From a virus (Duplodnaviria > Heunggongvirae > Uroviricota > Caudoviricetes): a stretch of DNA of 64,000 bases. The stretch lies in IMG/VR virus record IMGVR_UViG_3300044715_000866; one strand, written 5' to 3'. Every line of letters begins with the position of its first letter. Positions within the stretch are counted from its first letter, which is position 1. Below, piece after piece: positions 44,698 through 46,592 of the stretch. A program made the translations under genes and the position numbers. The notes under the pieces are model-generated. The model searched no databases. It worked only from the letters and a program-made list of their open reading frames with translations, and was not told where the DNA came from.

Positions 44698-45549
44698 ATG
44701 AAAATTTACGAAGTTACTAATCAACTTCCAAGCAAGAAAATACTTGCTCAGGAATTAAGTAAAATATACGAAGCTGATGCTCCGCCTGATCCTGGGTTCT
44801 TTTCTAAATTAGGACGTGTGTTGCATAAAAGTTTAAAACTGTTTAGTTGGTACGAAGCATTATGGAAACCGTTTGACACGTATATGGTAAACATGCAACA
44901 AGTTGAAGCCAATCTAACTAAAGCCGGTAACACTCCAGCTGCAATTGCTGAATTTAATGAGCAGCATGAACTGCAAATGGGTCAATTAATTGCAGGATTA
45001 TCTGCAGGAATTATAGTTAGCGGAATACTTGGATCACTTAGTACATTTGGAAAATTTTTACAATTTATTCCAGGTATTGGTGGCCCACTAGGAAAAACTA
45101 TAGGATTGTTATCTGACGGAGCTAGAGCATGGATATTATACGAACTTCAGTCTGAAACAGGAAGATCAGCAATTGCTAAATTAGTGGTTTTTACTGGAGT
45201 TAATTATGATATTGACTGGCTTGGTGTTCATATTCACGGAGACGTTAATATAACACAAATAATTGGTAAACTAGGTGTTGAAGCACACGATTATTTTGAA
45301 GATTTATTTAGACGTGCAATTGGATTAAAAGAATTAGATAAACCCATTAATGGAAAAGACCAGTTAGATCCAAATGCGCCACCGCCAACTCCACCGTTAA
45401 CGCCAGCACAAGATGCAAGTCTAACGGCACAGATGTTTAGCACAAATAAACCAGTTGAAAAAGAATTGCCTGTTCCAGGTGAATACCTAGGATCTAGATT
45501 GCAACGTAATCCCGTAACAGGCAGAGTAGAAATGAAGTCATTACAATAA
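44698..45549 (+). CDS. Hypothetical late protein with hydrophobic Gly-rich segment
   Basis: ATG at 44698 with AAGGA RBS (preferred to the track's TTG at 44671). Late core at 44644-44650. Begins MKIYEV. Confidence 0.65.
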   Translation: MKIYEVTNQLPSKKILAQELSKIYEADAPPDPGFFSKLGRVLHKSLKLFSWYEALWKPFDTYMVNMQQVEANLTKAGNTPAAIAEFNEQHELQMGQLIAGLSAGIIVSGILGSLSTFGKFLQFIPGIGGPLGKTIGLLSDGARAWILYELQSETGRSAIAKLVVFTGVNYDIDWLGVHIHGDVNITQIIGKLGVEAHDYFEDLFRRAIGLKELDKPINGKDQLDPNAPPPTPPLTPAQDASLTAQMFSTNKPVEKELPVPGEYLGSRLQRNPVTGRVEMKSLQ

Positions 45550-45774
45550 TGGCATTCTAGATACTTTTGTCATTTCTATATTTTCTTCAATTACATTATA
45601 CATAATCATACGATCTTCGTGACTTAGGTTATACAGGAGATCGTTGATTGACACTCCTCCTCTCATATACCACGATATTTTAAATAATTCATGTTTAAAT
45701 CGTTTAACTTCGTTATCTAGCCTAATTAGATATTGACTAATTGAATCTCTTGATTGTCCAATTAGGCGGGATCG
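45541..45774 (-). CDS. Start-less 77-codon ORF (gp51-like) in the -1 frame of the gp26-like gene; predicted frameshift extension
   Basis: Reads RSRLIGQSRDSISQYLIRLDNEVKRFKHELFKISWYMRGGVSINDLLYNLSHEDRMIMYNVIEENIEMTKVSRMPLL*. No ATG/GTG/TTG occurs before codon 37. An in-frame TGA lies a few codons upstream of the slippery site. Confidence 0.7.
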   Translation of the reverse strand, partial: RSRLIGQSRDSISQYLIRLDNEVKRFKHELFKISWYMRGGVSINDLLYNLSHEDRMIMYNVIEENIEMTKVSRMPLL

Positions 45775-45780
45775 AAAAAA
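45737..45780 (-). promoter_or_regulatory. -1 programmed ribosomal frameshift signal
   Basis: Slippery T-TTT-TTC (45780-45774), 8-nt spacer, then stem CTAATTG/CAATTAG (45765-59 / 45743-37) with inner AATC/GATT. Confidence 0.7.
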
Positions 45781-46592
45781 TTCGATTGATCTAAGTCAAC
45801 TGATATTGATGACTCGTGGTTACAATCAAGGTTACTACAAATTACTTTTACTGCTGGAATTTTCCAATCAGATTTAGTTTGATCTAAATGTGCTTTAATA
45901 ATATTAAAAATTTGTTTATCGCAATTTTGTAACCATTCTGAAATAAAATTAGATTCAGTTACTACTATTTTTCCAGTATCAATTGATTCGATACTAGCCG
46001 AATAAACTTCATTTTGCATTTTACCTAATTCAATAAACAAATCATGTACAACTTCTTTATATTTCTCTGCAGGTTCAATTGGAGTTGCTGCTAATTGTTG
46101 CTGCATTTTAAAATTTCTTAAAGAAAACTCAGTAGTTTGTTTATAATTTAGTGGTTGCAATTTGATAGTTAATGTGCCAACTTCAATTGTATTATTGTAT
46201 ATACAACTACTAAAATGATCGATCACTGTACCTAAATCAATATCGTAATCGTTTTCTGTTTTACATTTTGGGCATGTATGTACAACTTCTAACACACTCC
46301 CATGAGTAGCAATTCGAATTGCTGTTAGTAGTAGATCAACATCTAATGTAGTTACTGCCCAACCGTCTTTAATTGACGGGCAGCAGCTTTCAATTAGTTT
46401 CACTGAACTATCACCGGATAATAATGCATCCGGAGTTTTCATTATGATATCGTCCATACCTGTCATACCAAATATTGGCATGTGTGTAGGATCACCAGTA
46501 AATGTTCCTAATTGATTGTATATTCCTTTTGAAGGTAAAGAAACGAATATTTTTGGTTGTCTATAAAATTCTTGTAAAGGGTTTTGTGCCAT
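45762..46592 (-). CDS. gp26: Baseplate hub assembly protein (T4 gp26-like)
   Basis: NPL..FYRQPKIFVSLPS.G, MT..D.I.MKTPDALL.G, D.LL.AIRIA..G, C.KC..EN and C-terminal NFF motifs. Confidence 0.8.
   Translation of the reverse strand: MAQNPLQEFYRQPKIFVSLPSKGIYNQLGTFTGDPTHMPIFGMTGMDDIIMKTPDALLSGDSSVKLIESCCPSIKDGWAVTTLDVDLLLTAIRIATHGSVLEVVHTCPKCKTENDYDIDLGTVIDHFSSCIYNNTIEVGTLTIKLQPLNYKQTTEFSLRNFKMQQQLAATPIEPAEKYKEVVHDLFIELGKMQNEVYSASIESIDTGKIVVTESNFISEWLQNCDKQIFNIIKAHLDQTKSDWKIPAVKVICSNLDCNHESSISVDLDQSNFFDPA

Follow-up and report, generated by a model that had tools for sequence, protein, structure and literature searches.

Introduction

A conserved -1 frameshift in the tail chaperone genes is characteristic of long-tailed phages, with the T4-type phages as the exception. 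Xu, Hendrix and Duda reportedly described in 2004 that the shift is conserved in the tail assembly chaperone genes of lambda (gpG/gpGT), P2 (E/E+E'), Mu and other phages. In T4, gp26 and gp51 are listed as hub assembly chaperones, and gp51, although essential, is missing from the particle (Leiman et al. 2010, PMC3004832). Here, we analysed a stretch of 64,000 nucleotides (nt), referred to as the window, from the IMG/VR virus record IMGVR_UViG_3300044715_000866, and in particular a gp26-like baseplate hub gene on its minus strand. The source record comprises 175,916 bp at an estimated completeness of 48%, which corresponds to a phage genome of roughly 360 kb. An earlier reading of the window, made from its letters and hereafter called the original prediction, had proposed that the gene is fused by a programmed -1 frameshift to a start-less open reading frame (ORF). 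The evidence presented here makes it very likely that the single gp26/gp51-family gene of an uncultured giant T4-like phage is indeed subject to a programmed -1 ribosomal frameshift near its 3' end. This would be a T4-type case of the shift, residing in a protein family apparently unrelated to the known tail chaperones.

A slippery heptamer at the end of a gp26-like gene

The gene encodes a protein of 276 amino acids, which matches the Pfam family PF12322 (T4_baseplate) with 46.7 bits (cut-off 24.5), was also matched in the whole-record search, and belongs to phrog_150 ('baseplate hub') according to the PHROG search. The traits of the PF12322 family, two cysteine pairs and a C-terminal FF motif, are both present, and 12 sequences, T4 gp26 among them, share residues C107, C110, C252, C257, F272 and F273 without exception. 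The 3' end of the gene reads TCG AAT TTT TTC GAT CCC GCC TAA, so that T_TTT_TTC constitutes an in-frame heptamer of the type X_XXY_YYZ, as the original prediction had noted (positions are given in Table 1).

Homologues of the 84-codon ORF that overlaps the end of the gene in the -1 frame were located by tblastn immediately downstream of the 'baseplate hub' genes of Atu_ph07, Phosso and Xoo-sp13, and a tblastn search with the hub protein identified 89 jumbo-phage records of the Rak2-like group. Ten named phages were compared with the window: Atu_ph07, Phosso, Xoo-sp13, XacN1, RaK2, PBECO4, GAP32, CBB, PA5oct and SCTP-2. Their proteins are about 22-29% identical to that of the window; in all 11 genes the homologous Phe-Phe coincides with T_TTT_TTC or T_TTT_TTT, and the stop follows 1-10 codons later. 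Similarly, T_TTT_TTY occupies the homologous codon in 27/27 distinct junctions from the named jumbo phages and IMG/VR relatives, the heptamer occurs in 84/84 loci of the window's own clade, and the X_XXY_YYZ phase is held in frame 0 across all of these junctions and loci. Sixteen further metagenome contigs that cover the junction read AAT TTT TTC G, and two clades, those of Xoo-sp13 and XacN1, possess a run of seven T residues. Among the 66 distinct genes of the window's clade, the last codon of the heptamer is invariably TTC, a codon which accounts for 14% of the Phe codons elsewhere in the same genes, and the codon preceding the Phe codons is invariably NNT. The 120 closest protein clusters (of 1,658 at E <= 1e-5) all end with FF followed by one or three residues. 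The conservation of the heptamer is far beyond chance.

The zero-frame tail itself ends with Ala and the stop codon (GCC TAA, 45762-45767) in 118 of these 120 clusters, because the six bases form the base of the stem described below, with the stop lying in its 5' arm. The three residues following FF are otherwise free in the zero frame; what is conserved is the reading of these bases in the -1 frame.

The -1 frame encodes a conserved extension

The -1 frame is closed by a TGA five codons upstream of the heptamer and comprises 84 codons from stop to stop, 79 of them from the heptamer onward, that is, FF and 77 further codons. The two predicted products have lengths of 276 and 350 amino acids. 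In these respects the original prediction, which had listed the upstream TGA, 77 open codons and products of 276 and about 350 residues, was reproduced. The long start-less stretch that it described is likewise real; the first start codon, however, which it had placed after 36 codons, is found 38 codons after the heptamer (counting ATG, GTG and TTG), within the motif WYMRGG.

Across the 27 junctions the -1 frame opens 0-15 codons upstream of the site. In the window and the ten named phages it opens 1-9 codons upstream, runs for 73-90 codons and is accompanied by a closed +1 frame. For 82/82 loci of the window's clade, the length of the extension is exactly 79 codons. Pairwise comparisons show that substitutions counted in the -1 frame are most frequent at third and least frequent at second codon positions (12/3/23 at positions 1, 2 and 3 between the window and the related locus L012), and this third-position excess supports purifying selection acting on the extension in the -1 frame.

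The trans-frame peptides align without gaps from FF onward and share the motif FFR..LL..(E/S)PEEI immediately after the putative slip. This conserved motif lies upstream of the ATGs that are annotated in GenBank for GAP32, CBB and SCTP-2. The -1 ORF of PA5oct is devoid of ATG, GTG and TTG throughout, and in the window's clade the M of WYMRGG (codon 38) usually provides the first possible start, which is otherwise scattered between codons 8 and 38. Gene callers and GenBank place small ORFs of 41-98 amino acids at these positions, whose N-termini are arbitrary. Pfam and PHROG searches with the extension alone returned nothing meaningful. The sequences thus support the view that the -1 ORF is translated as a continuation of the hub gene and not from a start of its own. 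A survey of gp26 homologues for a conserved T-TTT-TTN followed by a start-less ORF, as suggested in the original prediction, gave the expected pattern in the 27 junctions and the 84 clade loci: all of them have the heptamer, and no start codon is conserved.

A covarying stem downstream of the heptamer

Folding of the 60-80 nt following the heptamer revealed an 11-bp stem in the window (minimum free energy -14.4, z -2.9). Its conservation was assessed in an ungapped alignment of 61 distinct sequences of the window's clade, using 500 shuffles and slid stems as controls. The stem is paired in 95.2% of the cells, compared to at most 55% for the slid controls, five of the 11 pairs have changed on both sides, and 33 compensatory cells were counted versus 11.4 +/- 2.5 in the shuffles (0/500 as high). 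A stimulatory structure is expected 5-9 nt downstream of a slippery site, and the stem begins at a distance of 6 nt. Hairpins starting 6 nt downstream occur in several clades, although the sequences of their stems are unrelated; the z-scores are -2.9 to -4.8 in the window's clade, -7.1 for Atu_ph07 and -4.4 for Phosso, -3.9 for Xoo-sp13 and -4.6 for XacN1, and -3.0 for PA5oct.

The original prediction had proposed another hairpin as the stimulator, a 7-bp stem (CTAATTG/CAATTAG) with an inner 4-bp stem. It is present in the window, but it is paired in only 55.9% of the cells in the 61 relatives, shows no covariation above that of the shuffles, and competes with the 11-bp stem for part of the same 5' arm. 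We therefore rejected it as a conserved stimulator.

According to the mechanism that we propose, most ribosomes would read AAU UUU UUC GAU CCC GCC UAA and release the short form of 276 amino acids. A fraction of them, delayed by the 11-bp stem 6 nt downstream, would pause with two tRNA-Phe on U_UUU_UUC, slip back by one base and add 77 codons, giving rise to the long form of 350 amino acids, whose four extra helices are predicted to pack onto the common core. By analogy to T4, the short form would correspond to gp26 and the long form to gp51, the one that is needed for the hub and is missing from the virion. If the two forms are the equivalents of gp26 and gp51, the slip would fix the ratio of two N-terminally identical chaperones, which is the logic of lambda G/GT and P2 E/E+E'.

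Natural in-frame long forms

A search with a profile of the extension against 1.84 billion representatives yielded 236 clusters at E <= 1e-3, about 20 of which are proteins of 319-351 amino acids that carry the extension in frame at the C-terminus. Their junction is xFR, with a single Phe and no T run (codons AAT CTC TTT CGT or ACA CGT TTT CGT), which identifies them as genuine in-frame forms and not as homopolymer errors. The surroundings of such genes are known from two contigs, and both have a short paralogue in tandem. On contig L040 the short paralogue (9018-10001; P0248, ending with SSFIPSIEA and the stop) is directly followed by the in-frame long form P0247, the pair spanning 9018-11017; on contig L122 a short paralogue at 51-1040 precedes the in-frame long form P0103 (span 51-2051). 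P0103 and P0247 are only 39% identical to each other, and both long forms match the extension profile at E 1e-16. The short paralogue of L122 is supported by hhalign with 98.6% (E 8e-16), and the four cysteines have been lost in both short paralogues. A further in-frame form, P0112, was not found in IMG/VR or in the JGI metagenomes. These phages thus resemble the window in that they encode the same core and extension in a short and a long form, and differ from it by the use of separate adjacent genes, the xFR junction and the cysteine-less short form. The pairs of cysteine-less short and in-frame long protein may be regarded as a natural 'resolved' version of the frameshift.

The natural fusions demonstrate that the long architecture is viable, while the production of the trans-frame protein in the window's phage is predicted. 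To obtain a structure of the long form, natural in-frame homologues were modeled as proxies. The AlphaFold model of P0103, based on a 101-row alignment, has a mean predicted local distance difference test score (pLDDT) of 95.3 and a predicted template modeling score (pTM) of 0.91, with the extension folded into four helices that pack against the core. Foldseek returned nothing from the PDB at E <= 0.001, and with VIA-align the matches were confined to helical hairpins (Z <= 8.3 over 50-60 residues) and included no relative among the tail assembly chaperones. The matches in BFVD were gp26/gp51-like baseplate hub proteins of many myoviruses. They also included gp26/gp51-like folds fused into proteins of 450-670 amino acids in phiKZ-like and other giant phages (Erwinia Special G, Ralstonia RP12, RSF1 and phiRSL1), and further ones in Bacillus SP-15 and Campylobacter CP220; the family is thus much wider than the T4-like phages.

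Relationship to T4 gp26 and gp51

The full cores of T4 gp26 (208 amino acids) and gp51 (249 amino acids) are each covered by matches to PF12322 and phrog_150, and gp51 consists of the PF12322 domain and a 48-residue tail, which is listed as PF28602 in precomputed annotations. Like the zero-frame product of the window, gp26 ends just after the conserved FF; however, its FF is encoded by GAG TTC TTT GAG, which lacks a slippery site, and the downstream -1 frame is gene 25. The tail of gp51 matches the extension in its helical motifs (LLxxPDEI; MxPxER..L..IEK) and topology but is about 25 residues shorter. The identity of the two T4 proteins to that of the window is only about 18%, and they are produced from two divergently transcribed genes, compared to one gene in the window. 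Whole-record searches detected two PF12322 genes in T4 and a single one each in RaK2, PBECO4, Atu_ph07, PA5oct, XacN1, GAP32, CBB and Xoo-sp13, as well as in four IMG/VR contigs of the frameshift type; the contig encoding P0247 has two. The copy of SCTP-2 was not matched by the PF12322 model, from which it is too divergent.

Aligned by hhalign, 14 reconstructed trans-frame proteins matched 92 gp51 sequences from end to end (95%, E 3.6e-8), with FFR..LL..PEEI overlying iFK.LLlnPDEvF and ls..eR...i..i.kk overlying MiPiERsiaLSLIEKD. The extension alone scored 21.9 against the gp51 tail alone, compared to 10.4 +/- 2.4 for column-permuted controls (1/100 as high), and a profile of 135 extension sequences scored 17.0 against the tail (permuted 10.1 +/- 2.1, 2/200 as high); the corresponding hhalign P values are 8e-4 and 5e-3. 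An AlphaFold model of a gp51 (P0002, pLDDT 92.6) shows, after the cysteine beta-hairpin, the same order of a short, a long, a short and a terminal helix as the long form, the long helix being shorter than in the jumbo-phage form. From profiles and models, the extension is likely to be homologous to the gp51 tail. The proposal in the original prediction that gp26 and gp51 are represented here by one recoded gene is in agreement with the shared families, the possession of a C-terminal tail by gp51, the gene counts of one in jumbo phages and two in T4, and the short paralogue that accompanies the in-frame lineages.

T4 has an annotated internal in-frame product, 26', which represents the C-terminal 95 residues of gp26 (L011, T4 115802-116089). 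Hence, T4 itself makes nested gp26 forms by another route.

With some reservation, we favour the hypothesis that the long puzzling gp26/gp51 pair and the single recoded gene of Rak2-like and aquatic jumbo phages are alternative ways of meeting the same need, namely to supply one hub chaperone in two lengths at a defined ratio. The frameshift would then be the T4-lineage counterpart of lambda G/GT, repeatedly exchanged for gene duplication and left unannotated in over 1,600 protein clusters and in every sequenced Rak2-like phage.

Alternative explanations

Several points weigh against this explanation of the locus. Folding gave no significant downstream structure in RaK2, GAP32, CBB, SCTP-2 and the clades L018-L038. 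The homology between the extension and the gp51 tail is only moderately supported, with p about 0.01. Since the record is estimated to be 48% complete, a second PF12322 paralogue may exist in the window's phage. Finally, a -1 frame ATG overlaps or abuts the hub stop (ATGA or TAATG) in Atu_ph07, Phosso and PBECO4 (L001:2510-2513, L002:2525-2528 and L005:1635-1639), so that coupled re-initiation could also express the ORF in these three phages, alongside the slip. Taken further, these overlaps, the small ORFs annotated at this position by GenBank and gene callers, and an FF that is conserved as protein even in T4 gp26 might indicate that the downstream ORF is a separate small gene, translated by coupling or re-initiation at the hub stop, and that the T run only mirrors the Phe-Phe motif. 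We consider this improbable, as start codons are missing in PA5oct and late or scattered elsewhere, while conservation of the peptide extends upstream beyond the annotated starts. Further evidence against it is the constant combination of the heptamer with the rare TTC and an NNT pre-codon, a covarying stem at frameshift spacing, and the existence of in-frame fusions.

The same long form would arise if RNA polymerase slipped on the run of six or seven T residues and inserted an extra U into some of the transcripts. Such slippage is known in phage and insertion sequence genes (Atkins et al. 2016, PMC5009743), and the longer runs of Xoo-sp13 and XacN1 would suit it. The RNA stem argues otherwise: it covaries, follows at 6 nt with a spacer that is fixed in several clades, and fits a ribosomal pause, whereas it has no role in transcription; moreover, the X_XXY_YYZ phase is always that of frame 0. 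Six T residues are also short for efficient slippage by bacterial RNA polymerase. The short run and the conserved stem together leave transcriptional slippage little credibility, and it is probably the ribosome that slips. An artefact or decay, that is, a homopolymer error or a recent frameshift mutation in one gene of 350 codons, is very hard to believe. Homopolymer runs are error-prone and in-frame homologues of 319-351 amino acids exist, but an identical T6C, followed after 1-10 codons by a zero-frame stop, recurs in more than 100 independent assemblies and in cultured, finished genomes, and the in-frame forms differ at the junction and possess a second paralogue.

Comparison with the lambda-type tail assembly chaperones

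The programmed -1 frameshift proposed here shares several features with lambda G/GT, with which the original prediction had compared it. Both involve a late tail-morphogenesis gene with an in-frame X_XXY_YYZ near the 3' end and a start-less -1 ORF, both yield two products, predicted ones in the window, with a common N-terminus, and the gene adjoins a tape-measure-like gene; the P2 site, TTTTTTG, is a T run as well. The proteins differ. The core encoded in the window is a zinc-ribbon-containing PF12322 domain of 270 residues and not a small helical spiral, the window protein gave no Pfam or PHROG match to the tail assembly chaperone families, and the structure searches with the long-form model gave no convincing fold relative. 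By analogy to T4, the product would act on the baseplate hub. Chaperones of the lambda type bind the tape measure, recruit the tube protein and are missing from the virion; by analogy to T4 gp51, which virions lack, the window's product might resemble them in the last of these traits. The gene order is also different: tail assembly chaperone genes lie between the tail tube and tape measure genes on the same strand, whereas the gene of the window is divergent from the putative tape measure gene and not upstream of it, and portal and head genes follow. Only the logic is common to both, and the data give no support for placing the window's protein in the G/GT protein families.

None of the ten GenBank jumbo-phage records examined has an annotated joined or slipped coding sequence, and full-text searches of the literature found no report of a frameshift in gp26/gp51. 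As a kind, -1 recoding of phage tail chaperones is known; what appears to be new is the gene family involved, its T4-type setting and the connection to gp26/gp51. A testable hypothesis can be framed for the T4 pair: gp26 and gp51 may be two isoforms of a single chaperone, one short and one long. Throughout the Rak2-like jumbo phages, which include several therapy candidates, the annotation of a core structural module would be corrected; at present the extension is miscalled there as a small ORF or goes without a call. A natural series in which recoding and duplication replace each other is also at hand, comprising a single gene with a slip, a tandem pair and a divergent pair.

The surrounding locus

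Table 1. Features of the gp26-like locus (window coordinates)
Feature	Position	Strand	Basis
Zero-frame gp26-like baseplate hub chaperone gene, putative short form, 276 amino acids, ending ...NFFDPA-stop	45762..46592	-	translation and family match
TGA closing the -1 frame five codons upstream of the heptamer	45796..45798	-	sequence
Slippery heptamer T_TTT_TTC (X_XXY_YYZ), frame 0 Asn-Phe-Phe	45774..45780	-	sequence and conservation
6-nt spacer between heptamer and stem	45768..45773	-	ungapped alignment
5' arm of the conserved 11-bp stem, GCCTAATTGGA (= GCCUAAUUGGA), including the zero-frame stop UAA (45764-45762)	45757..45767	-	folding and covariation
26-nt loop between the arms of the 11-bp stem	45731..45756	-	folding
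3' arm of the conserved 11-bp stem, TCTAATTAGGC (= UCUAAUUAGGC)	45720..45730	-	folding and covariation
Alternative hairpin CTAATTG (45765-45759)/CAATTAG (45743-45737), inner AATC/GATT; present here, not conserved	45737..45765	-	original prediction
-1 frame extension, FF + 77 codons (RSRLIGQ...SWYMRGG...RMPLL), stop 45543-45541; predicted trans-frame product of 350 amino acids	45541..45780	-	translation and homologues
Candidate T4-type late promoter core TATAAATA (46628-46621) and GGAG ribosome-binding site (46602-46599), upstream of the ATG at 46592	46599..46628	-	consensus only
Divergent neighbour of 1179 amino acids, possibly a tape measure protein	46655..50194	+	ESM Atlas lead only

A blastn search of the locus against GenBank phages gave no match, and an Rfam scan of 45400-46000 returned only a chance match to HrrF (E 0.069). 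The end of the -1 ORF shares 9 nt (45541-45549) with that of a convergent ORF of 292 amino acids (44671-45549, plus strand), for which Pfam and PHROG gave no match.

The original prediction had placed the gene next to a tape-measure-like gene. The neighbour of 1179 amino acids may be such a gene: a weak language-model lead from the ESM Atlas (cosine 0.92 to tape-measure clusters, 125/256 features) points in this direction, and the RaK2 gene at the same position is annotated as similar to a tape measure. Pfam and PHROG gave no match for the neighbour, and BLASTP detected no similarity to the N-terminus of its RaK2 counterpart. It is also divergent from the hub gene and not downstream of it. Beyond it, the window encodes at 50219-56114 a portal (phrog_213), a prohead protease (phrog_207) and a major head protein (phrog_138). 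The hub chaperone gene thus adjoins the head module and does not lie within a baseplate cluster.

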